Source: Escherichia coli | GTDB lineage: Bacteria; Pseudomonadota; Gammaproteobacteria; Enterobacterales; Enterobacteriaceae | Reading direction: 5' to 3' (one strand) | DNA length: 44,545 nucleotides | NCBI RefSeq assembly: GCF_003334385.1 | Contig: NZ_QOWN01000035.1 | Part shown: one piece after another, positions 28,935-44,269 of the stretch | Layout: every line of letters begins with the position of its first letter | Numbering within the stretch: the first letter of the stretch is position 1 | Notes under the pieces: generated by a model | The model's database searches: none | What the model was told of the DNA's origin: nothing | What the model saw: the letters and a program-made list of their open reading frames with translations, nothing else | Made by a program: the position numbers and the translations under genes

Positions 28935-29971
28935 AATGCTGCCGCGTTGTAATATTCGTCGGTGTCCGGGGTCATCAGCGCCTGTTCAAGACGTTGCTGT
29001 TGTTCGTTATCCCCTGCCAGCACGGCAGTTTGCTGCGGATTTAGCCCCAGTTTGCGGAACAGTTGCAGGTCTTTATCTTCTTCCGGATTCGGCGTGGTCA
29101 GCAGTTTGCAACCGTAGAAAATCGAGTTTGCGCCTGCCATAAAGCACATCGCCTGAGTCTGTTCGTTCATCTGCTCGCGTCCGGCAGAAAGGCGCACGTA
29201 AGAGGTTGGCATCATGATCCGCGCGACCGCAATGGTGCGAATAAAATCAAAGGCATCGACATCATCGTTATCGGCAAGCGGCGTGCCTTTCACCTTCACC
29301 AGCATGTTGATTGGCACGCTTTCCGGCGGCGTCGGCAGGTTTGCCAGTTGCAGCAATAATCCGGCGCGATCTTTTACCGTTTCGCCTAAGCCCACAATGC
29401 CGCCAGAACAGACTTTGATCCCGGCATCGCGCACTTTTTCCAGCGTATCGAGGCGTTCCTGATAAGTGCGTGTGGTGATGATATTGCCGTAAAACTCCGG
29501 CGAGGTGTCCAGGTTGTGGTTGTAGTAATCCAGCCCGGCGTTCGCGAGGCGCTGCGCCTGAGATTCACTCAACGTGCCCAGCGTCATACACGCCTCCAGC
29601 CCCATCGCTTTTACCCCCTGCACCATTTGTTCCAGGTACGGCATATCGCGTTCGTGGGGATTCTTCCACGCCGCGCCCATACAGAAGCGCGTCGATCCTG
29701 CCGCTTTCGCTTTGCGCGCCGACTCCAGCACCTGTTCAACTTCCATCAACCGCTCGGCTTCCAGCCCGGTTTTGTAGCGCGAGCTTTGCGGGCAGTATTT
29801 GCAATCTTCCGGACAAGCTCCGGTCTTAATCGACAGCAACGTGCTGACCTGCACCTGACGAGGATCGAAATGCTGGCGATGCACCTGCTGCGCTTCAAAC
29901 AGCAGATCCAGCAACGGTTTTTCAAATAATTCTGTGACTTGCGACAATGTCCAGCGTGGGCGGTGAGCCAT
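28931..29971 (-). CDS. bioB: biotin synthase (radical SAM), 346 aa
   Basis: CPEDCKYC radical-SAM motif; first gene of the leftward bio operon. Confidence 0.95.
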
Positions 29972-30016
29972 GGGGCTTCTCCAAAACGTGTTTTTTGTTG
30001 TTAATTCGGTGTAGAC

Positions 30017-30050
30017 TTGTAAACCTAAATCTTTTCAATTTGGTTTACAA
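30017..30050. promoter_or_regulatory. bio operator (BirA binding site) between divergent bioA and bioB promoters
   Basis: Imperfect palindrome TTGTAAACC-taaatcttttcaatt-TGGTTTACAA, matching the known bioO sequence. Confidence 0.8.
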
Positions 30051-30057
30051 GTCGATT

Positions 30058-31347
30058 ATGACAACGGACGATCTTGCCTTTGACCAACGCCATATCTGGC
30101 ACCCATACACATCCATGACCTCCCCTCTGCCGGTTTATCCGGTGGTGAGCGCCGAAGGTTGCGAGCTGATTTTGTCTGACGGCAGACGCCTGGTTGACGG
30201 TATGTCGTCCTGGTGGGCGGCGATCCACGGCTACAATCACCCGCAGCTTAATGCGGCGATGAAGTCGCAAATTGATGCCATGTCGCATGTGATGTTTGGC
30301 GGTATCACCCATGCGCCAGCCATTGAGCTGTGCCGCAAACTGGTGGCGATGACGCCGCAACCGCTGGAGTGCGTTTTTCTCGCGGACTCCGGTTCCGTAG
30401 CGGTGGAAGTGGCGATGAAAATGGCGTTGCAGTACTGGCAAGCCAAAGGCGAAGCGCGCCAGCGTTTTCTGACCTTCCGCAATGGTTATCATGGCGATAC
30501 CTTTGGCGCGATGTCGGTGTGCGATCCGGATAACTCAATGCACAGTCTGTGGAAAGGCTACCTGCCAGAAAACCTGTTTGCTCCCGCCCCGCAAAGCCGC
30601 ATGGATGGCGAATGGGATGAGCGCGATATGGTGGGCTTTGCCCGCCTGATGGCGGCGCATCGTCATGAAATCGCGGCGGTGATCATTGAGCCGATTGTCC
30701 AGGGCGCAGGCGGGATGCGCATGTACCATCCGGAATGGTTAAAACGAATCCGCAAAATATGCGATCGCGAAGGTATCTTGCTGATTGCCGACGAGATCGC
30801 CACTGGATTTGGTCGTACCGGGAAACTGTTTGCCTGTGAACATGCAGAAATCGCGCCGGACATTTTGTGCCTCGGTAAAGCCTTAACCGGCGGCACAATG
30901 ACCCTTTCCGCCACACTCACCACGCGCGAGGTTGCAGAAACCATCAGTAACGGTGAAGCCGGTTGCTTTATGCATGGGCCAACTTTTATGGGCAATCCGC
31001 TGGCCTGCGCGGCAGCAAACGCCAGCCTGGCGATTCTCGAATCTGGCGACTGGCAGCAACAGGTGGCGGATATTGAAGTACAGCTGCGCGAGCAACTTGC
31101 CCCCGCCCGTGATGCCGAAATGGTTGCCGATGTGCGCGTACTGGGGGCCATTGGCGTGGTCGAAACCACTCATCCGGTGAATATGGCGGCGCTGCAAAAA
31201 TTCTTTGTCGAACAGGGTGTCTGGATCCGGCCTTTTGGCAAACTGATTTACCTGATGCCGCCCTATATTATTCTCCCGCAACAGTTGCAGCGTCTGACCG
31301 CAGCGGTTAACCGCGCGGTACAGGATGAAACATTTTTTTGCCAATAA
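30058..31347 (+). CDS. bioA: adenosylmethionine-8-amino-7-oxononanoate aminotransferase, 429 aa
   Basis: ORF 29947..31347; start taken at [20 protein letters not shown]...; class III PLP aminotransferase. Confidence 0.9.
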
Positions 31348-31405: not shown

Positions 31406-31882
31406 ATGAAACTCATCAGTAACGATCTGCGCGATGGCGATAAATTGCCGCATCGTCATGTCTTTAACGGCATGGGTTACGATGGCGATAATATTTCACC
31501 GCATCTGGCGTGGGATGATGTTCCTGCGGGAACGAAAAGTTTTGTTGTCACCTGCTACGACCCGGATGCGCCAACCGGCTCCGGCTGGTGGCACTGGGTA
31601 GTTGTTAACTTACCCGCTGATACCCGCGTATTACCGCAAGGGTTTGGCTCTGGTCTGGTAGCAATGCCAGACGGCGTTTTGCAGACGCGTACCGACTTTG
31701 GTAAAACCGGGTACGATGGCGCAGCACCGCCGAAAGGCGAAACTCATCGCTACATTTTTACCGTTCACGCGCTGGATATAGAACGTATTGATGTCGATGA
31801 AGGTGCCAGCGGCGCGATGGTCGGGTTTAACGTTCATTTCCACTCTCTGGCAAGCGCCTCGATTACTGCGATGTTTAGTTAA
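31406..31882 (+). CDS. ybhB: PEBP/Raf-kinase-inhibitor-like family protein, 158 aa
   Basis: Full-length match to K-12 YbhB; the last host gene before attB-lambda. Confidence 0.85.
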   Translation: MKLISNDLRDGDKLPHRHVFNGMGYDGDNISPHLAWDDVPAGTKSFVVTCYDPDAPTGSGWWHWVVVNLPADTRVLPQGFGSGLVAMPDGVLQTRTDFGKTGYDGAAPPKGETHRYIFTVHALDIERIDVDEGASGAMVGFNVHFHSLASASITAMFS

Positions 31883-31972: not shown

Positions 31973-32125
31973 TTAGTATAAAAAAGCTGAACGCGAAACA
32001 TTAAAAACCATTAATATCAATGTGTTACAATATCTTTAGTCTAAAAAATAGACTACATGATGCTACAAAACACAACATATCCAGTCACTATGAATCAACT
32101 ACTTAGATGGTATTAGTGACCTGTA
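31973..32125. other. Prophage attR: lambda-type core plus P arm
   Basis: Core TTAGTATAAAAAAGC is the reverse complement of the lambda core GCTTTTTTATACTAA. The host side matches attB (cgctcaag); the phage side resembles the lambda P arm (cagtcactatgaatcaactacttagatggtattagtgacctgtaacagagcattagcgcaagg) with scattered substitutions. Confidence 0.85.
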
Positions 32126-32612
32126 ACAGAGCATTAGCGCAAGGTGATTTTTTGTCTTCTTGCGCTAATTTTTTGTCAAACACATTACGTCGTTTGCTGA
32201 ATTTACAACCATGCTCAGTATCTCGATAAGCGCAGAGAAATGATGCAATGGTGGGCGGAATGGCTTGATGGGAAGGCTGAGTAATTAATCTTTAATCAGA
32301 GGGTAACAATGCATGGCTCAGTGAACTAAGCCAATCATTTGTGATCTCCAATTGTTAATCTTATTAGTTCTAGATACTTGATTTATGCCATGATGCTTGT
32401 AGATTAGAAAGCAGTAGACTATACAACACTGCGGTCAAATAATTATCAAGCATAATCACGGTATACACATTTTTTTGATAGCGTAAGGATAGTGAGCCAT
32501 CGATGCCATATTCAATATTTATGCAATTTAAGCATGGTTTATATACACTAATTTTCTTAGTGCCCACAAAATCTTTGATTGTACAAAAAACACAGGGGTA
32601 ATGGAGATTTTT

Positions 32613-33779
32613 ATGTTTGACGGATTTAATGGCTTTTTAATTGCTTCTTTATCGGTGATTACTTCACTTTCTGTTGCAAGAATATTTGTCACAGAAACAC
32701 ATTTATCACCTATCAAAGGAAGGAGTGAATCAATTGATGGGCTTAGAGGATTTCTTGCTTTAATGGTTTTCCTTCATCATTCCAGTTTCTGGTGGCAATA
32801 CATACATACTGGGGTTTGGTCTGATCCTGATTCGTTATTTTATACTAATATTGGAAAAATAGCTGTTATTTTCTTTTTTATGATTACAGGCTTCTTGTTC
32901 TTCGGGAAATTGATTTCGAATAAATCAGTAAATTGGGAAGATTTATTTTGGTCAAGAATAATGAGACTAACACCTATGTATCTGGTTTCGTTATCTCTAC
33001 TATTCATAATTGTGTTCTATGTTTCTGATTGGAAAATTAACACAGGAATTGACAATCTCATAATATCTATGGCGAGATGGGTTCCTTTTTCTTTCCTTGG
33101 AATGCCTGATGTTAACGGTCTTCACAAGACGTCGCTTATCATGGCCGGAGTTCCGTGGTCACTTGTTTATGAATGGTTTTTTTATTTATCTCTTCCTTTT
33201 ATGGCTTTTATAATGAGAAGAGACAAATTTAATACTTACACAATTCTTAGTATTGCGAGTGTATTTGCTTTTATTTTCTATCCATCATTAAAAATACATA
33301 TTTTATCATTTGTTTTTGGTTATCTGGCAGCAAAAATAAATCACAAACTGTCTAACGGCTTGCCTTTCAATAAAATATTATCAAGCTTATTCGTCATCGT
33401 TATCTTATGTGTAACTTGTTTTTTAATTCCAAATCCTTACAATCCAATAACAATATCACTCTGTGGTATTGCATTTATTATGATATCAAATGGATGCGAT
33501 ATTTTTGGAGTTCTTAAGATAAAAACCTGTCAAGTTTTTGGAGAAGCTACATATAGCATGTATCTTCTACATGGCATTATACTTTTTATAACATTTAAAA
33601 TAATACTTCCGGTTAGCTATGTTAATCAAATTAACAGCCTTGTATTTTCAGCTATTATTATAATCCTCTCTGGGTTTATCACGCTTATATCATTACTATG
33701 TTTTAGATATATTGAGACACCGTGTAGTAAGTTTAAAAAATTTAATGTACTAACATACACAAGAAGAAAACTTCAGTAA
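32613..33779 (+). CDS. acyltransferase-3 family membrane protein, probable O-antigen O-acetyltransferase (Oac-like), about 388 aa
   Basis: About 10 hydrophobic segments and the AT3 motif R...HH (IDGLRGFLALMVFLHHSS); very AT-rich; sits between the tailspike and att like serotype-conversion genes of P22-like phages. Start at 32613 preferred (GGAG 6 nt upstream) over 32601. Confidence 0.7.
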   Translation: MFDGFNGFLIASLSVITSLSVARIFVTETHLSPIKGRSESIDGLRGFLALMVFLHHSSFWWQYIHTGVWSDPDSLFYTNIGKIAVIFFFMITGFLFFGKLISNKSVNWEDLFWSRIMRLTPMYLVSLSLLFIIVFYVSDWKINTGIDNLIISMARWVPFSFLGMPDVNGLHKTSLIMAGVPWSLVYEWFFYLSLPFMAFIMRRDKFNTYTILSIASVFAFIFYPSLKIHILSFVFGYLAAKINHKLSNGLPFNKILSSLFVIVILCVTCFLIPNPYNPITISLCGIAFIMISNGCDIFGVLKIKTCQVFGEATYSMYLLHGIILFITFKIILPVSYVNQINSLVFSAIIIILSGFITLISLLCFRYIETPCSKFKKFNVLTYTRRKLQ

Positions 33780-33838: not shown

Positions 33839-36175
33839 TCAGATTGGATAATTACTTACTCTAACATCAGCAAAACTAGTTGTTCCTGTCAAGGAAATAT
33901 CCATGCGTTCATCACAAGCAGGAGCAAGAAAAACCTCTACAGCTACACATTCTGATCTTTTAACATGATATATTGCCTGACGCTCAAGCCACGAATTATC
34001 AGATAATAATTTTATTGCAGTATTAGATAACGAATTACCTGTAGAATCCAATTCGCGAAAAATGACCGCCGATGATATTGATGTTTCTGATAACGTCCAT
34101 AGTCTTACATAGACAGCACTTCGTTGAGCTACTCGAAGTGTTGCCACTAATAAACTCTGTACTGATGCGGTATTCTTATCGTTAAGAGTGAATGCATAAG
34201 GCGTACCTACAGGCTTTGTAGTTGCATCTGTTTTCTCTGGCGCAATAGATATAACAGTCTGAAAAAATCTATCCTGATTAGCTAGAATATGACCAGCTAT
34301 GGAACGCATCGGTAGAGGGTTAGTACTATGGACAGCATCACTTCTTCCAACACGAAAACCACCGCCTGTATTCTGGCTATTGGCAGTGATAAATACGTCT
34401 TGGTTATTGTCTACAAACACTTCACCTGAACACGAACTAGTTATGATCTTACCTACAGAGTTAAATCTTGGTTTTATCTCTTGATTGTCAATTCCGCTAA
34501 TTAGTCCAGGCACAAATTCGAATGATACACCAACACCGTTACAGCTAACAGCCGTGATATCTTCAACGTTGATGTCATACCCATTGACAATGCGTACCGC
34601 ATTATTGTTTACCCTTTCGGCATAGACATTTTTAATTCGAATGTGCTGTGATTGGAAGTATGTAGACTCAGAAGGATACGAGTAATTAGTCACGAATATA
34701 CCAGCCAAGCCAGCCACACTGGTTGCTGCAGCAACATACTTTCCACCAAGAACATCAATATTCTCTCCTTGAATTTCAAGAAAATTTTTAGTTGCTTTTG
34801 ATTTTCCTGTTTGAATTCCGATATTGCCAGCAAGGAATACACCACGGCGTGAACCATCCGTAGAGTGATGGCAATCGTTCATGTCGAATGTTTTGCATGC
34901 ATCGATAACCCAATTTTCGCAACCTCTCTTAAAGTCATTCAATGTACGATGGCCGAAAGCAGTGTTGCCGAAACTGAAGATGTTTTTAATGGTATATGTA
35001 CCGTATTCGCCAGGTGAATCAATAGAGCCATTCATACACTTAAATGCATTGAATCCAACAGCGGTAAGCATTGGGTCTGTTCCCTCTGATGAACAATACA
35101 AATAATTAATACCATCAATCATTCCACCATTAGTTGTGTATCCTTCCCATGCTTCATGTGGGCAGTTTTTGAAATGACATCTTAAAGCAGTAATATTGCG
35201 ACCAATGGCACCGTTATTGAAATGCCAGCAGAATGCGCGAATAATCTTCTGCGGCGCAATGTTATTTATTTCGTAACCGTCTTGGTATTGTCCATCAAAA
35301 CAAATATCCTGCAGCATCGCAAAATATAGATCCTTGTCAGGGTTCTTACGGATGAACCAAGAGTAATAGCCAAAGCCATTATTCTCAACGTCTTGCTTTG
35401 TTAGTGAGATTGGTCTGATAGTAGTACTTGACTTACCTGCACCAATCCAATGAAACCAGTCGCCAATTTGCACACTACCACTAAACGAGATCACATCTAT
35501 ACCTCTAAAATCTAGAGGAACCCTTTTATATTCTGATAATATTTGTAATTTATTTATTACCGATGCGCAGTCAACTCCGCTCTGAATGTAGCGACTGCAC
35601 ATGATCGCATCATTGAAATTAGAACCATCCATGACGCATAACCATTGACTATTAAGATTTGGATTTTCTGTTGGCGCTACAGTTTTCGGAAGGGAACCAA
35701 GCCATTGGTAATAAAGTCCATCAGTGTATTTAAGGACCTGTTTTCTATTGGTAATAGTATATCCAGACGCAAAATCGCCATCAATTATTCGACTGTATTC
35801 TGATATTTCGAAATTTCCCTTTGCCCACAAGGAAAACTGATCAGGATCATACTTCAGAACATTCGGAAAATAGAACTGCTGCGCTCCATATGCATCATAA
35901 ACAGCCATCGAATGACCTTGCACAGTTACAAACTTGGCAATCTGCCCGTTATATACAGGATATCCAGCAGCGTTAATGATGATTGGTTGCGATACAGGAA
36001 CATGAGAGCCGTCTTCGTTCTCCACATAAACCTGGATCTGGTTTTCAGTATTTACCGGATCAGTGTCAATTTTTCCGATATAAATCTTTCCATTAGCTAC
36101 GGCTTTAAAAGAACGAGCCATAGTGAAGAGTTGCGAAGGCATGCTTACCACAACATTTGCGGTGATATCTGACAT
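33839..36175 (-). CDS. tailspike protein: P22 gp9-like N-terminal head-binding domain plus divergent receptor-binding domain, about 778 aa
   Basis: From the second ATG (GGAG 7 nt upstream): [42 protein letters not shown]...[15 protein letters not shown]...LKYDPDQFS closely resembles the P22/HK620 tailspike N-terminus; the remaining ~650 aa are divergent and AT-rich. Confidence 0.85.
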
Positions 36176-36270
36176 TTCATTGCTCCAGACGAATGATATG
36201 ATGCAACCATGATGTGATTGCATACCGAAATGGTACTATTGAGTATTTATCCAGTAGGTTACGATGCCAT

Positions 36271-36288
36271 TCCACCCAACTGGTGAGG
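36271..36288. promoter_or_regulatory. Imperfect palindrome, candidate Mnt operator in the tailspike/mnt divergent region
   Basis: tCCACC-caact-GGTGag resembles the half-sites of the P22 Mnt operator (TCCAC...GTGGA). Inference only. Confidence 0.3.
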
Positions 36289-36296
36289 CATCAAGG

Positions 36297-36557
36297 ATGT
36301 ACAGCAAATACGACGAGGCGCAGTTTCACTTGAGACTTCCGCATGAACTCCACGCGAAAATTAAGCAGCGTGCGAAGATGAATAACAGGTCGCTGAACTC
36401 AGAGATAATTGCAGCGATGGAGGAATCATTGGATAAACAAAGCTCTGCATCAGTTTACATTGACGATGCAGAGCGTATGGCAGAACAACAATCTGATATG
36501 GTTAAGAAAATTGTCTTTGATACGCTCAAGAAGCTATATAAAAAAGACAGCAGATAA
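36297..36557 (+). CDS. mnt: Mnt-like ribbon-helix-helix repressor, about 86 aa
   Basis: QFHLRLPHELHAKIKQRAKMNNRSLNSEIIAAMEESL...NDAERMAEQQSDMVKKIVFDTLKKLYKK aligns with recalled P22 Mnt (HFNFRMPMEVREKLKFRAEANGRSMNSELLQIV...DAERLADEQSELVKKMVFDTLKDLYKK). Start at the internal Met preferred; the ORF could begin at 36264. Confidence 0.8.
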   Translation: MYSKYDEAQFHLRLPHELHAKIKQRAKMNNRSLNSEIIAAMEESLDKQSSASVYIDDAERMAEQQSDMVKKIVFDTLKKLYKKDSR

Positions 36558-36646
36558 CCATCCGTTACGGAGGATTTATGCACAGAGATATGCTGAATAT
36601 TGCGTTCTACATATTTGGTTTTTACACGTTCCTGGTGTTTGCGAAG

Positions 36647-39040
36647 CTATTCTGACAGCGCATCAGACTTAGCCCCCTGAGTCAGGGCGTTAATGGCCTT
36701 TTGTGCCTGCTGCATGGCTTTCTCGAACGCTGTTGATCCGCGTGGGGTGTTTGCCATTCGGAGCATTGCATTTCTGAATGGCTCGCTCTCATAGGCGCGA
36801 GTAAGAAGTCCGTAGCTTACCGCTGCGCCAGTTGTCGCAGGGTTCATTGCCGTCCCATACCCGATAATGAACGGGATGGTTTGCTGCCCTGTTGGTGTTG
36901 TTACTGCCGCTTTTGCAGCCTGCTGCGTGGATTGCAGGTAGTTTTTCAATCCTTTCAGATAAGCAGCGTCCTGCCCCTTAAATGTGATGCCAGTCTGGTT
37001 TTGCAGGATGTTAAGCTGCCGAAGGAACTGGTCAGGGGATCCGCCAGATTTCTCCATCGCCTTTCCAATGATGCCATTGCGCATTTGCGCCCTGCCAACA
37101 CGACCAACTGAGTTATACAGCGTCTTAATTTCCGATTTGTTCTTGCTGAATAGCATGTTGTTGACAACTTCCGGCGTCAGATCGCCTTTCATGAGAACAT
37201 TCTTCAGCCTGGTATTCTTTAGTTTCGCGGCTTCGTCAGCGTAGACGGCATTGGCCTGCTGATATTTACGGAGAGTATCGTTGCCAAGATTCTGACCAAT
37301 GGCACCATTGATATCGTCGGTCATTGCCTTGTAAACGCGCTGAATGGCAGCATCGGAACGGTTTGGTAACACTGGTCGCTCACCCTTCACGTCCATTCTG
37401 AACTGGCTGCGCAGATCGCTTAATTGCTTCAAATCCAGATTTACCGGACCATCAGGACCAGCATTGCGAACAAGCTCATCACGATATGACTGAAGTTTTG
37501 AAATTGTCTCGTTATCAGCGACCTTACCAAGCTTCTGCAGATTAGATATTTCTGTATCAATCTGCTGAATTGCTCGCGCTGGCTGAATGTTTACTCCAGC
37601 CATAGCATTCTGAACCTGCTCCAGTCGATTACCGGCGGCACGACGAATTCCTGATGTTTTCGCTTTAAGGCTGTCAATAACAACCGCTGGATCATACTCA
37701 CCGAATTTATCGGCAAATCTCTGCACCAACTGGCTTCTCGCTTCCTGTTGCGTTGCTCTCATTCCGCTTGTGCCAGCCAGGGGGATATTTTCTGCTGTAG
37801 TCTGCGCCATTTTCCCGACGCGGGAAGTAGGCTGTAACAGGTCTGTGGTGTGCAGAGGAACTCCTTCACGCTCTGCAAACCTGATAGCCTGTTGAGCTTC
37901 TGGTGCTATCGAACCACGAACACCACGATAAGCAGAACCTAATCCACGTCCGGCAGCGTTAATAGCACCGCCAGCCAGCACACCAACGCCTAAATCGGTG
38001 GCGAGTGCTTCCGCATCATCTTTCGCACTGTTTGCAGCAAGTGATCCAACTGCGTTTTCTGCTAGAAGGCGAGTTGCCCCCTGAGCAATTCGACCAGCAA
38101 GTGTTGGTGACTGTGTTGCCGCTCTCTCAACGCCAGCAGGAGTGAGGTAAGGCAATGCTTCAGCAAATACCCTTCCCTCTGTCGTTTGTGGAGTCAGCGC
38201 GCCTTGCTGAAGGCCAAAGTCCTGCTCTAATCCCTGCGTTGTTACTCGTGGTGCTGGTTGATATGTACCATCGCCAATGCCGAGTTTACCTCCAGCCCAA
38301 GCCGCCGCGCTTGTTACAGCATCAGTGAGTTCAGCAGGTATGTTCGCTACGTTGATTCCTGCCTGTAGTAAGCCGCGCCCGGTTTCAGCAAGTCCATTAC
38401 CAAGGTCAGACATTATTCCGCCTTGCTGCTGAACAGGTTTCGGTGCGACAGAACTTACGGGTTGAGGTGGCTGCTGACTGGCTGCCTGCTGCTCAATCTG
38501 AGCAAATGGATTATTTGGGTCTGACTGCACGCCTGATGCCGATACTTGTTCGGATGACTGTGCTTCCAGTTGTGCAAACGGGTTGTTAGGGTCTTGCTGA
38601 GGATGTACCTTTGCAGAGGTGGCGCGCTGTTCGACTGTTGAGTCTGTCACCGGGTCACCCGCCCATTGAGCAAAGCGATCATCAACGTAACCGCGGCCTT
38701 CAGATCCTGGCGTATATTCACCACGCTTTGCCTTCATAACGTTGCCGGGACCGTCGTGATAAGCCTGAAGAGCGTCACGCCAGTTACCAAACTGCTGGTA
38801 CATCTTTGCCAGATAGCGCGCGCCAGCGTCAGCCTGATATTCGGGGTTTTGCATTTGCTCATCGGTATAACCCATATCACGCCATGTCCCAGGCATGACC
38901 TGAGTCAATCCTACAGCCCCGGCGGAGCTTACTGCGGCAGGGTTGTAAGAAGACTCCTTGGCACCCAGTGCAGTCATCAACCCTTCTGGCACACCGTAAC
39001 GTGCGCCAGCCTGCTCTAACAAATCACGGTAATTAGCCAT
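36647..39040 (-). CDS. virion ejection/internal protein at the P22 gp16 position, with an N-terminal lytic transglycosylase (SLT) domain, 797 aa
   Basis: N-terminus carries an SLT-like catalytic motif (GAKESSYNPAAVSSAGAVGLTQVMPGTW...YLAKMY), followed by a tandem DPNNPFAQ(L/I)E repeat and a long Ala/Gln-rich region; last gene of the ejection-protein block. Confidence 0.7.
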   Translation of the reverse strand: MANYRDLLEQAGARYGVPEGLMTALGAKESSYNPAAVSSAGAVGLTQVMPGTWRDMGYTDEQMQNPEYQADAGARYLAKMYQQFGNWRDALQAYHDGPGNVMKAKRGEYTPGSEGRGYVDDRFAQWAGDPVTDSTVEQRATSAKVHPQQDPNNPFAQLEAQSSEQVSASGVQSDPNNPFAQIEQQAASQQPPQPVSSVAPKPVQQQGGIMSDLGNGLAETGRGLLQAGINVANIPAELTDAVTSAAAWAGGKLGIGDGTYQPAPRVTTQGLEQDFGLQQGALTPQTTEGRVFAEALPYLTPAGVERAATQSPTLAGRIAQGATRLLAENAVGSLAANSAKDDAEALATDLGVGVLAGGAINAAGRGLGSAYRGVRGSIAPEAQQAIRFAEREGVPLHTTDLLQPTSRVGKMAQTTAENIPLAGTSGMRATQQEARSQLVQRFADKFGEYDPAVVIDSLKAKTSGIRRAAGNRLEQVQNAMAGVNIQPARAIQQIDTEISNLQKLGKVADNETISKLQSYRDELVRNAGPDGPVNLDLKQLSDLRSQFRMDVKGERPVLPNRSDAAIQRVYKAMTDDINGAIGQNLGNDTLRKYQQANAVYADEAAKLKNTRLKNVLMKGDLTPEVVNNMLFSKNKSEIKTLYNSVGRVGRAQMRNGIIGKAMEKSGGSPDQFLRQLNILQNQTGITFKGQDAAYLKGLKNYLQSTQQAAKAAVTTPTGQQTIPFIIGYGTAMNPATTGAAVSYGLLTRAYESEPFRNAMLRMANTPRGSTAFEKAMQQAQKAINALTQGAKSDALSE

Positions 39041-40372
39041 TTACTGCCCCAAAGATGGAAGATATCCGTAGCGATTAATGAAGTCGATTGACAGCTCGGG
39101 GTGCTGCTTCAGGTAATCTATAGAAGCCTGAGGCGCTTCCACTCGCTTGATACCGTTTTGCTGAACGTACTTACCAACCGCCTCATTACGCTTCTGGTTG
39201 AGCGTGTTCAGGATGACGCCAGCGTTGCGACGAAAGGACTCCTCGCTCTGCGAGTTCTGCAGCGAACCAACAGCCTGGTCGAGCTTTTTGCCCTCGGCAT
39301 CAGAAAGTGCGCCCATGCCTCGCATGGCCTGAACCGCTGTCAGGTATGCTTGTGATTTAAAGGTATCAAGTCGTGCCTGAGTGTCTGCAGCCTGTGAGCC
39401 TGGAACGTTGGGGATTACTCCACGTAAGCCTGTAATGCTCTTAAGTGAAGGAGAACTAACGATATCGTTCAGAGTGAACATGCTGGTTGTGATGGTGTTG
39501 ATGCCGTCTTTGTAGCCATCATTTAGCGCTTGCTGCTTCTGCTGCAACTGCTGGTTGTTGGCTGCTATGCGGCTCTGTATTTCCTGGCGCTTCAGGTCGT
39601 TAGTTTCTGCTGATAGCATCCGGTCAAGGCGCTTATTTTCGTTGTTAATGCGGTTTGTTTCTGCGTCCAGATTAATGCGCTGCTGACCTAAATTCGCCTG
39701 GATATCTTGTCCGCGCATTGTGATTGCCTGATTCCGAGCGGCGGTTTGCGAATCCAGATCCTGACCGCGCATGGTAACCTGTCGACCCTGCATTTTATCC
39801 TGTAGGTCAAAGTATTTTTCGGGCCCGAGACTGTTCATCCCCAGGTGATCGACAAATTCGCCGAACTGCCGCGGGTTCTGTTGGTACATCTGAGCGACGT
39901 CATGAGGATTAACGCCAACACGAGCTAACTCACCGGCGTTGTTTTGCAGCCATGATTGCATTGCTTCTGGAGAAGATGACGCAAGACGTGCGCCAGCCGC
40001 TAATGTACCGATAGAATTACGCTGGTCTTCATCAATGAATCCCATGCCTTTACGAACGGATTCAATCTGGTCTGGATATTGAGTAGCCAACTGACGCAAA
40101 GCACCGCGATCACCAGAAGCATAAGCATTAGCGTATGCCTGCTGAAATTCTTTCTGCCGCTGAGCCTGCTTTTCCTGCTGAAACACCCCCGCAATACCTG
40201 AAAGGCCTTGCAAAGCAGTCAGCCCAACATTGTTAGCGCCTGAACGCTCAATATCATTGTTCTGCCTGATAAGCTGAAGCGTATTGCCGATGTCATTTAC
40301 GCTCGGAGCGTTTGAGTTGACGCCGCCGATACCAGCCAACAATCCGCCGTTTGTTCCTTGCCAAGTAGCCAT
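39041..40372 (-). CDS. ejection protein at the P22 gp20 position, 443 aa
   Basis: Called by position and size (P22 gp20 is of similar length) and by Gln/Asn-rich low-complexity composition; stop abuts the start of the next gene (coupled). Confidence 0.55.
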   Translation of the reverse strand: MATWQGTNGGLLAGIGGVNSNAPSVNDIGNTLQLIRQNNDIERSGANNVGLTALQGLSGIAGVFQQEKQAQRQKEFQQAYANAYASGDRGALRQLATQYPDQIESVRKGMGFIDEDQRNSIGTLAAGARLASSSPEAMQSWLQNNAGELARVGVNPHDVAQMYQQNPRQFGEFVDHLGMNSLGPEKYFDLQDKMQGRQVTMRGQDLDSQTAARNQAITMRGQDIQANLGQQRINLDAETNRINNENKRLDRMLSAETNDLKRQEIQSRIAANNQQLQQKQQALNDGYKDGINTITTSMFTLNDIVSSPSLKSITGLRGVIPNVPGSQAADTQARLDTFKSQAYLTAVQAMRGMGALSDAEGKKLDQAVGSLQNSQSEESFRRNAGVILNTLNQKRNEAVGKYVQQNGIKRVEAPQASIDYLKQHPELSIDFINRYGYLPSLGQ

Positions 40373-40381
40373 GATTACCCC

Positions 40382-41074
40382 TTAAAACAACGAGCCAAGC
40401 AATCCGATACCAGCACCAATTCCAGCGCCCCAAGGCGTTGATGTTCCCAAAAGGCTGGCAAGACCTGCACCGGCAATCGCACCAGACGTGCCACCGCTAA
40501 TTGCAGTCTGAAGACTTGATGGTTTGTTGGCATTAGCAGCGGCAAGAGCTGCGCTTTGCTGTGCAATGCTGCTCATGTTGTTGGCGTACGTCTGCCCGGC
40601 GTTTGCCTGACCTTGCAGAGCACCAAGCCCAACGTTTGCCAGATTGTTGTAATTGCTCATCTGGTTTGATAACCAAGACTGACCGAGAGTCGGCGCGATC
40701 GTAGCCAGTTGATTGCTTGTGGCTGTCGAACCAAGTCCACCCGTCGCCTCCGCAGCAGCGAGACTCTGGTAACGCGCCTGACCTGCAAGGTCTTTATACT
40801 GCTGAGAGTTGTAATACTGATTAAGTGCCTGCCCCTGACCTTCTAAACTGGAAAGGTTCTGAAGCTGGTTAACATACTGTTCCGCAAGAGGCGTGAACGG
40901 AGCAAGGTTTTTCATGATCGTCTGCCACTGCTGATTTTGCAGGTCTGCTGCATACTTCTGAGCTTCTGCGGCATACTTTGCGCTTTTATCAGAACTGCCA
41001 CCTTTCCCACCCTTTTCAGGGCAATAAGGTTCCTCGCCGCGCAGTTTTCTGCCCAGCTTAAATGCATATAACAT
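40382..41074 (-). CDS. ejection protein at the P22 gp7 position, 230 aa
   Basis: Size and position match P22 gp7; Gly/Ala-rich C-terminus ending in a hydrophobic tail (GAGIGAGIGLLGSLF). Confidence 0.55.
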   Translation of the reverse strand: MLYAFKLGRKLRGEEPYCPEKGGKGGSSDKSAKYAAEAQKYAADLQNQQWQTIMKNLAPFTPLAEQYVNQLQNLSSLEGQGQALNQYYNSQQYKDLAGQARYQSLAAAEATGGLGSTATSNQLATIAPTLGQSWLSNQMSNYNNLANVGLGALQGQANAGQTYANNMSSIAQQSAALAAANANKPSSLQTAISGGTSGAIAGAGLASLLGTSTPWGAGIGAGIGLLGSLF

Positions 41075-43807: not shown

Positions 43808-44269
43808 TCACGTACTCGGATCATCTTTCTCGATGTAAAACCGATTCCACGTAAACGCGCTTTTGTTACCACTACCGCGAGGCATGTCATTTCGCCGCTC
43901 AAGTGGTGGTATTTTGGTTAAAGCGATACAGATTGTCTGATATGCGCTGTCGGCAGCGGTAAGGAGAGCGTCTGCCGGCTGAATGACGTTATCCATGCAC
44001 ACTTGCACAGCGAGTTTCAAAGCGACGCCATCATTTGCCCATGCAGGGATACCTGAATCATCGTCAGGTAACGGCATGATGCCGTTTTCTGTATCAGCAA
44101 ACTGATACCCAAGCTCGATACCTTTCGCCTGCCATGCTGCCATCATGTCTTCGAGGTCATTAATGGCATCTTCAATTGCCTGAGGGTCAGCATCTGTCAA
44201 CGTGGCATTGGAATACAGCCCGGCTTTTCGTAAAGCCTTTAGAACGAGATCACCCTTCGTTTTCGCCAT
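43808..44269 (-). CDS. tail accessory factor gp4-like, 153 aa
   Basis: N-terminus (MAKTKGDLVLKALRKAGLYSNATLTD...DLEDMMAAWQAKGI) resembles P22 gp4; sits directly upstream of gp10 as in P22. Confidence 0.7.
   Translation of the reverse strand: MAKTKGDLVLKALRKAGLYSNATLTDADPQAIEDAINDLEDMMAAWQAKGIELGYQFADTENGIMPLPDDDSGIPAWANDGVALKLAVQVCMDNVIQPADALLTAADSAYQTICIALTKIPPLERRNDMPRGSGNKSAFTWNRFYIEKDDPST

Follow-up and report, generated by a model that had tools for sequence, protein, structure and literature searches.

We analyzed a 44,545-nucleotide stretch of Escherichia coli DNA (NCBI RefSeq assembly GCF_003334385.1, contig NZ_QOWN01000035.1), hereafter the window, with a focus on the open reading frame (ORF) at 36647-39040 on the minus strand, which encodes 797 residues in the ORF listing. 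This ORF is homologous to gene 16 and belongs to a P22-like prophage (Lederbergvirus, related to Sf6), and its product carries a predicted SLT lytic transglycosylase domain at the N-terminus. The virion module is arranged in the order gp4-gp10-gp26-gp14-gp7-gp20-[SLT gp16 gene]-mnt-tailspike, with the mnt gene on the plus strand. The gene thus follows genes 7 and 20 and precedes the immI/tailspike region, an order identical in Sf6, IME10, and Sf101, and no nucleotide separates its ATG from the stop codon of gene 20 (TAAATG). An initial annotation made from the DNA letters had assigned the gene to the P22 gp16 position as the last gene of the ejection-protein block, and the gp7-gp20-gp16 order confirmed this assignment. 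Two PHROG families together covered the product: phrog_21143 matched residues 1-207 (E=1.9e-143), the part that contains the SLT module, and phrog_770 ("DNA transfer protein") matched residues 108-797 (E=2.7e-239).

First, we examined the N-terminal domain. The Pfam family SLT (PF01464) matched residues 7-110 (E=6.3e-25), the lytic-transglycosylase models of NCBIfam matched residues 3-103, and a phmmer search against PDB sequences aligned residues 4-102 with residues 453-560 of E. coli Slt70. In this alignment, E29 (in GAKESSYNP) fell on Slt70 E478, which is the catalytic residue of that enzyme, and the pair E29-S30 fell on E478-S479. GLTQ (residues 44-47, in GLTQVMP) aligned on GLMQ of Slt70, and AYHDG (residues 93-97, in AYHDGPG) on AYNAGPG. 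Residues E29, S30, Q47, Y94, and G97 were at least 90% conserved in an alignment of 111 sequences, and E29 and S30 were invariant in an alignment of six gp16 proteins. In the AlphaFold2 (AF2) model of the full-length protein, residues 1-120 were predicted with a predicted local distance difference test score (pLDDT) of 86-98. When this model was compared with the PDB by Foldseek, the leading matches were all lytic transglycosylases (probability 1.00), the best being the N-terminal fragment of T7 gp16 from the periplasmic-tunnel structure (7k5c_B), followed by MltE, MltD, Slt, and MltF. The initial annotation had named an SLT-type domain with a catalytic Glu at this end, and both the profile search and the structure prediction bore it out. 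On sequence and predicted structure, residues 1-130 form an intact SLT lytic transglycosylase domain with complete catalytic motifs.

The domain has the catalytic Glu-Ser pair, the GLxQ and AYNxG motifs, and the goose-lysozyme-like helical fold in common with E. coli Slt70, MltE, and MltC. It differs from them in being a bare catalytic domain, devoid of superhelical, lipoprotein, or LysM parts and of a signal peptide. Without a signal peptide, the enzyme domain would depend on ejection from the virion to enter the periplasm.

Next, we compared the remainder of the protein with the gp16 proteins of P22 and Sf6. Residues 208-797 were 97% identical to Sf6 gp13 and approximately 75% identical to the P22/ST64T type. 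P22-type gp16 proteins aligned only to residues 207-797 and Sf6 gp13 to residues 208-797; approximately 200 N-terminal residues of the window protein are therefore extra, in agreement with the initial annotation, which had noted that it was longer than P22 gp16. On homologues, this body is recorded as the precomputed domain PF26808 (Phage_P22_gp16). The AF2 model of the body was helical, with pLDDT of 80-94 across much of residues 380-710, and neither the phmmer search against the PDB nor Foldseek found a solved structure matching it by sequence or by fold. Sf6 gp13 (665 residues) carries an unrelated 75-residue N-terminus in place of the SLT module; Sf6 and ST64T both begin with MAKAWKDVIAS... 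and are devoid of the SLT domain.

The difference from Sf6 extended beyond gene 16. Sf6 has the gene at the same position, together with the same gp7 and the same N-terminal half of gp20, but the C-terminal part of its gp20 is different and ends in SLWGD, whereas gp20 of the window ends in YGYLPSLGQ. The two gp20 proteins were near-identical to approximately residue 180 and divergent from there to the end. In a blastn comparison, the window DNA matched that of Sf6 at approximately 95% identity in two stretches, one reaching from gp14 into the middle of gene 20 and the other starting at codon ~204 of gene 16. The interval between them, 38429-39835, lacked this identity; similarity resumed at residue 208 in the protein and at position 38428 in the DNA. 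The swapped block is thus 1.4 kb long and comprises the C-terminal 60% of gp20 together with the N-terminal module of gp16. As judged from these alignments, the SLT-bearing gp16 is a domain-level mosaic, as the initial annotation had proposed, although the exchanged block is larger than the domain and reaches from the middle of gene 20 to codon ~204 of gene 16. The coordinates of these features are listed in Table 1.

Table 1. Features of the gene-16 homologue and surrounding genes in the window
Feature	Position	Strand	Evidence
Gene-16 homologue: predicted SLT domain, probably disordered linker with repeats, P22/Sf6-type gp16 body	36647..39040	-	ORF listing; PHROG matches
Predicted SLT lytic transglycosylase domain, residues 1-130	38651..39040	-	Pfam, Slt70 alignment, AF2, Foldseek
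E29 codon, predicted catalytic glutamate of the E-S motif	38954..38956	-	Slt70 alignment
Repeat copy 1, QDPNNPFAQLEAQ, residues 149-161	38558..38596	-	Peptide comparison
Repeat copy 2, SDPNNPFAQIEQQ, residues 173-185	38486..38524	-	Peptide comparison
Gln/Pro-rich linker, residues 186-207, ending at the mosaic joint QQGGIMSDLG	38420..38485	-	pLDDT; Sf6 gp13 comparison
Sf6-type gp16 body, residues 208-797, largely alpha-helical	36647..38419	-	Sf6 gp13 identity; AF2 model
Mosaic block relative to Sf6: gene-20 codons ~180-443 and gene-16 codons 1 to ~204	38429..39835	-	blastn of window vs Sf6
Gene-20 homologue, 443 residues	39041..40372	-	phrog_2534, E=2e-194
Gene-7 homologue, 230 residues, first of three ejection-protein genes	40382..41074	-	phrog_598 "DNA ejection", E=1.2e-100
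gp4 homologue (tail adaptor)	43808..44269	-	PHROG match
E. coli chromosomal gene bioA	29947-31347
E. coli chromosomal gene ybhB	31406-31882

To determine how widely the module occurs, we searched for it in isolated phages, complete E. coli genomes, and IMG/VR loci. Full-length orthologues were found in the isolated phages IME10, phiKp_30, Sf101, APC_JM3.2, Huey, and Dewey, which supports a function of the architecture in viable phages. The IME10 protein was 99% identical to that of the window over all 797 residues and the phiKp_30 ORF was 94% identical to the whole protein, whereas the module sits on one very different gp16 body in Sf101 and APC_JM3.2 (911 residues) and on another in Huey and Dewey (875 residues). 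In all six phages, the N-terminal module (residues 1 to ~205) was 99-100% identical to that of the window and the C-terminal part of gp20 was at least 97% identical; the phage records sharing this gp20 part at that level were exactly those with an SLT gp16. The IME10 ORF was left unannotated: the RefSeq/GenBank records of this phage (NC_019501.1, 31064-33454) list genes 10, 26, 14, 7, and 20 but not the 797-residue gene-16 ORF. The GenBank name of Sf101_0013 is just "transglycosylase."

Among 5426 complete E. coli genomes, the SLT module was present in 70 and the Sf6-type body in 337. The block formed by the C-terminal part of gp20 and the N-terminus of gp16 was present in 71 of the 5426, with at least 80% coverage in 66. 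We also examined an IMG/VR sample of 80 loci with essentially identical gp7, in which 69 complete gp20/gp16 pairs were clustered de novo. The N-termini of gp16 in these pairs were mainly Sf6-like (31), of a type beginning with MMKVTANGK (15), or SLT (13; 19%), with smaller numbers of an Emek-like type (5) and of an Sf6-like type with a 95-residue insert (3). In this sample, three or four body clusters carried the SLT type, and an identical SLT module was found on Sf6-, Sf101-, and Huey-type bodies. The SLT type was paired with a single type of gp20 C-terminal part (13/13 IMG/VR loci and 66/67 E. coli genomes). The proteins gp10, gp14, gp7, and the N-terminal part of gp20 remained 93-100% identical whatever the type of the gp16 N-terminus.

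The SLT module is therefore an optional, swappable variant of gene 16, found in roughly one-fifth of the relatives that have a virion module of this type, and SLT-gp16 is a minority allele among characterized phages. A domain common to all P22-like gp16 homologues would have been ordinary, and this was not what we found. More distant proteins of 850-1033 residues with approximately 50% identity in the SLT domain kept the SLT-plus-gp16 architecture and showed the same P22-like synteny wherever the contig was long enough; the complete run coat-gp4-gp10-gp26-gp14-gp7-gp20-[SLT gp16]-tailspike was present in two of these loci (L008 and L009). The occurrence of SLT-gp16 in distant, syntenic P22-like prophages indicates that the fusion is old and widespread.

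We then focused on the segment connecting the SLT domain with the body. Residues 140-152 and 163-218 had pLDDT below 50 in the AF2 model, and a linker of approximately 80 residues (residues ~140-218) is probably disordered. Two copies of a peptide with the consensus DPNNPFAQ[LI]E lie in this segment, 24 residues apart and identical at 10 of 13 positions (Table 1). A similarity of 10 was reached in none of 200 shuffles of the protein, the largest value being 9. The initial annotation had described the duplicated motif as a near-repeat visible in the DNA; the duplication holds at the peptide level but not at the DNA level, where only 25 of 39 nucleotides were identical, Tandem Repeats Finder reported no repeat in 36600-39100, and the sole match in a repeat search of the DNA was 16 nucleotides at 75%. 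The identity of 10/13 residues but only 25/39 nucleotides indicates that the duplication is old and has been maintained at the protein level. The region following the repeats, which had been described as Ala/Gln-rich, is in fact Gln/Pro-rich. Among 74 distinct N-termini of the subfamily, the columns of DPxNPFAQ[LI]E were at least 97% conserved and the spacer between the copies was variable. In distant homologues, the SLT domain was flanked by related motifs on one side or on both (MANVFDQF/GGNVFDQFG, MANPFAQFD/GNPFAQFDK/DPNNPFVQFDK, and MAGPWEKYQ/GPWSNY), and an SLT-less gp16 of Vibrio begins with two copies of GRNLFA.Q.

Some SLT-gp16 proteins (P0097, residues 185-290; P0107; P0108) additionally contain a module of 95 residues (KGLIQEGNIDIHNRP...AYAE[SR]LHNQQADEYLP) inserted after the repeats. 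The same module, which neither Pfam nor PHROG families matched, was also found in SLT-less Sf6-type N-termini (IMG/VR L019-type) and is thus a second optional cargo domain on gp16.

Taken together with the T7 system, these features are probably best explained by a gene-16 ejection (pilot) protein whose N-terminal lytic transglycosylase serves as an optional aid to entry through local cutting of peptidoglycan. P22 gp16 is the model for its delivery: judging from P22 genetics, the protein would be packaged in the head, leave through the tail during infection, and be required for DNA entry. The N-terminal 130 residues would act as a family-1 lytic transglycosylase and cleave the MurNAc-GlcNAc bond locally in the periplasm without hydrolysis, giving 1,6-anhydroMurNAc, and opening of the peptidoglycan mesh in this way, as in T7 gp16, would allow the gp20/gp16 conduit to reach the inner membrane. 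The probably disordered linker of approximately 80 residues would act as a tether between the enzyme and the conserved gp16 body. The 1.4-kb cassette of the gp20 C-terminal part and gp16 N-terminus appears to have been moved by recombination between P22-like phages, onto different gp16 bodies. The N-terminal transglycosylase of T7 gp16 is needed for genome internalization only when the peptidoglycan is highly cross-linked (PMC8954989), and such a conditional need fits the natural presence/absence polymorphism of the SLT module.

The resemblance to T7 concerns arrangement rather than descent. T7 gp16 (7K5C, 7EYB) is likewise encoded by the third and largest gene in a run of three ejection-protein genes and likewise has an SLT-type domain at its extreme N-terminus followed by an extended linker. 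The SLT domains of T7-like gp16 N-termini were 33-35% identical to that of the window protein. However, the T7 gp16 body showed no detectable sequence similarity to that of the window protein (no PDB sequence matched outside the SLT domain), Foldseek comparison with 7eyb_I and 9jyy_I yielded probabilities of 0.47-0.69 and TM scores of only 0.11-0.17, and T7 gp16 is considerably longer (1318 vs 797 residues). Given the lack of homology to the T7 body, the window gene would work like T7 gp16 but should not be filed in the T7 gp16 family. Moreover, its SLT domain was no closer to that of T7 than to the SLT domains of N4-like phages, kuraviruses, and tape-measure proteins, and was therefore not a recent acquisition from a T7-like phage. 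In function the protein would correspond to the T7 gp16 arrangement; by descent it is a P22/Sf6 gp16. A review gives gp4 as the virion lysin of P22 and the gp16 proteins of T7 and T3 as lytic transglycosylases, in line with the initial annotation, which had attributed the P22 activity to gp4 and recognized the SLT fusion as the T7 gp16 arrangement; the best fold match, 7k5c_B, points the same way.

Several points weigh against the role as an entry aid. Most of the characterized P22-like phages, among them P22, Sf6, ST64T, HK620, and CUS-3, manage without the domain, which is therefore not essential for entry. In P22, gp4 has been credited with the muralytic activity of the virion, and the window has its own gp4 homologue (Table 1); the type of gp4 showed no correlation with the type of the gp16 N-terminus. 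The Foldseek E-values were weak, 3.5e-3 at best, which can be ascribed to the use of a partly disordered 797-residue model as the query. Finally, the enzymatic activity, virion incorporation, and ejection of this gp16 are all deduced from homology.

A further proposal concerns the linker only and would complement the role as an entry aid: both copies of DPNNPFAQ[LI]E, like the related aromatic motifs found in relatives, might be peptides that dock onto the C-terminal domain of gp20 during assembly of the trans-periplasmic conduit. They would then be the counterpart of the "molecular tape" of T7 gp16 that cements gp15 subunits, and co-adaptation with the C-terminal part of gp20 would account for its travelling together with the SLT module. 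We consider this rather unlikely at present. It is favored by the conservation of the motif columns despite a variable spacer, by the higher identity of the copies as peptides than as DNA, which indicates selection on the peptide, and by the flanking of the SLT domain with related motifs in distant homologues. The tail of gp20 also varied together with the N-terminus of gp16: YG[YF][LM]P accompanied N[PV]F[AD]Q[FLI] in four divergent lineages, and the other pairings were SLWGD with MAKAWKDV, SGIQFTVE with MMKVTANGKTFTFPDG, and KYLGGQ with MAYSREQL. The pairing of the SLT type with one gp20 C-terminal type, and the near-identity of gp10, gp14, gp7, and the gp20 N-terminal part across all gp16 types, are consistent with such a partnership, as is the report that gp16 and gp20 of P22 and Sf6 are not interchangeable singly (SieA preprint). 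T7 gp16 contains KPFAKDFWE within its tape region (residues 157-228), but this resemblance spans only approximately six residues.

On the other hand, the DNA for the gp20 tail lies right next to that for the gp16 N-terminus, and plain linkage could explain their co-inheritance; furthermore, Sf6-type N-termini were paired with two different clusters of gp20 C-terminal parts. We also predicted the structure of a single-chain chimera by AF2, in which gp20 residues 186-443 were joined through a (G4S)6 linker to gp16 residues 118-218, using an alignment of 20 rows. The gp20 part was folded (pLDDT 85-96), but the gp16 segment remained at pLDDT 28-42 throughout, and no docking was detected, a negative result that is weak because the alignment was shallow, two of its rows were partly misaligned, and the partner is probably oligomeric. 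The repeats are conserved short motifs for which a gp20-docking role received no support in this modeling. If docking did occur, it would account for the exchange of the gp20 C-terminal part together with the gp16 N-terminus in a single cassette and for the failure of heterologous gp16/gp20 pairs, and the pairing of gp20 tail type with gp16 motif type would provide a sequence code for ejectosome compatibility.

An alternative to an active enzyme is an SLT domain that has lost catalysis or only binds peptidoglycan and would anchor the ejectosome to the sacculus. The entry of most P22-like phages requires no such enzyme, and motif III reads AYHDG in place of the canonical AYNxG. However, the E-S pair, GLxQ, and the Y and G of motif III are all kept at the conservation given above in the 111 homologues, which include bona fide enzymes, and none of the subfamily members examined had a degenerate active site. 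This makes a dead enzyme improbable. That the long ORF is an artefact of prophage decay, in which a deletion fused a lysis gene or another SLT gene onto gene 16 to give a product non-functional in the virion, is scarcely credible: chimeras of gp26, gp7, and NinG with gp16 do exist in databases, but the full-length architecture studied here recurs in isolated plaque-forming phages and in 67-70 complete E. coli genomes, and is kept at approximately 50% sequence divergence in syntenic P22-like modules, and in the window the stop of gene 20 and the start of gene 16 abut exactly.

The chimeras deserve mention in their own right. In-frame fusions of the N-terminal part of the gp26 needle, gp7, or NinG to a gp16 body (P0111, P0114, and P0117) can be mistaken for new architectures. 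Three candidate alternative N-terminal "domains" of gp16 (PF25688, PF05766, and an unassigned 200-residue segment) were rejected on this ground, being gp7-, NinG-, and gp26-gp16 deletion fusions from decaying prophages.

The SLT-plus-gp16 architecture is already recorded in databases and is auto-annotated. PF01464 and PF26808 were precomputed on many of the proteins found in the homologue search, one cluster of which represents 1295 member sequences, and NCBI names the SLT-gp16 homologues "lytic transglycosylase domain-containing protein." The fusion, which the initial annotation had considered unusual, is indeed confined to a minority of phages, but it is common and automatically labeled, and hence less unusual than supposed. 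The same NCBI name was also found on SLT-less Sf6-type gp16 proteins, namely P0118 (665 residues), L002:2776-4773 (VSe13), and L015:673-2649 (S9-5). P0118 had no NCBIfam match, and PF26808 was the only Pfam entry on its record. On these proteins, the label appears to have been over-propagated from fused relatives.

In the searchable literature, the combination of P22-like phages or Lederbergvirus with transglycosylase yielded only mentions at the level of genome announcements, and we found no experimental or comparative treatment of the fusion in that literature, which did not cover Casjens & Thuman-Commike 2011 (Virology 411:393). A 2022 review states that P22-like phages are without lytic transglycosylase activity; the distribution of SLT-gp16 contradicts this statement, since the SLT domain occurs in roughly one-fifth of the prophages related to Sf6 and in several Lederbergvirus isolates. 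Bodies of gp16 that are 97% identical and occur with or without the enzyme allow a matched comparison of the conditions under which a podovirus needs peptidoglycan cutting for DNA delivery, and the same comparison bears on whether P22 gp4 really supplies muralytic activity. The cassette of gp20 C-terminal part and gp16 N-terminus, together with the conserved linker motifs, offers a lead on how gp16 and gp20 are joined in the P22-type ejectosome.

The surroundings of gene 16 showed further features of note. The gp4 of the window had only approximately 40% identity to the gp4 of the 80 IMG/VR phages with roughly identical gp7, in which gp10 and gp14 were 93-99% identical; gp4 of this prophage is a further sharp mosaic joint, unrelated to the type of the gp16 N-terminus. 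No sieA-like gene was found in the 89-bp gap after gene 16. An Arc/Mnt-like ribbon-helix-helix gene (36264-36557, plus strand; phrog_795) lies between gene 16 and the tailspike gene. In the tailspike (33839-36223, minus strand), only the first ~115 residues, corresponding to the P22 head-binding domain, matched annotated tailspike families, and the receptor-binding part matched one PHROG of unknown function, only up to residue ~200. The program-called start of this gene at 36223 probably sits 16 codons upstream of the real start (MSDITANVV...).

An exact copy of the lambda attachment core, GCTTTTTTATACTAA, was found at 31973-31987, just downstream of ybhB and bioA, with 0 copies expected by chance, which indicates that this P22-like prophage is integrated at the lambda attB. 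P22 and Sf6 use thrW and argW instead. The DNA before this core is E. coli chromosome, and the prophage genes occupy the stretch from the core to the end of the window. An O-acetyltransferase of 392 residues (32601-33779, plus strand; phrog_3333, E=8e-53) is encoded next to the core, in an island with a GC content of 33-34% that separates the attachment site from the tailspike gene; it is probably an O-antigen-modifying lysogenic-conversion gene like oac of Sf6.

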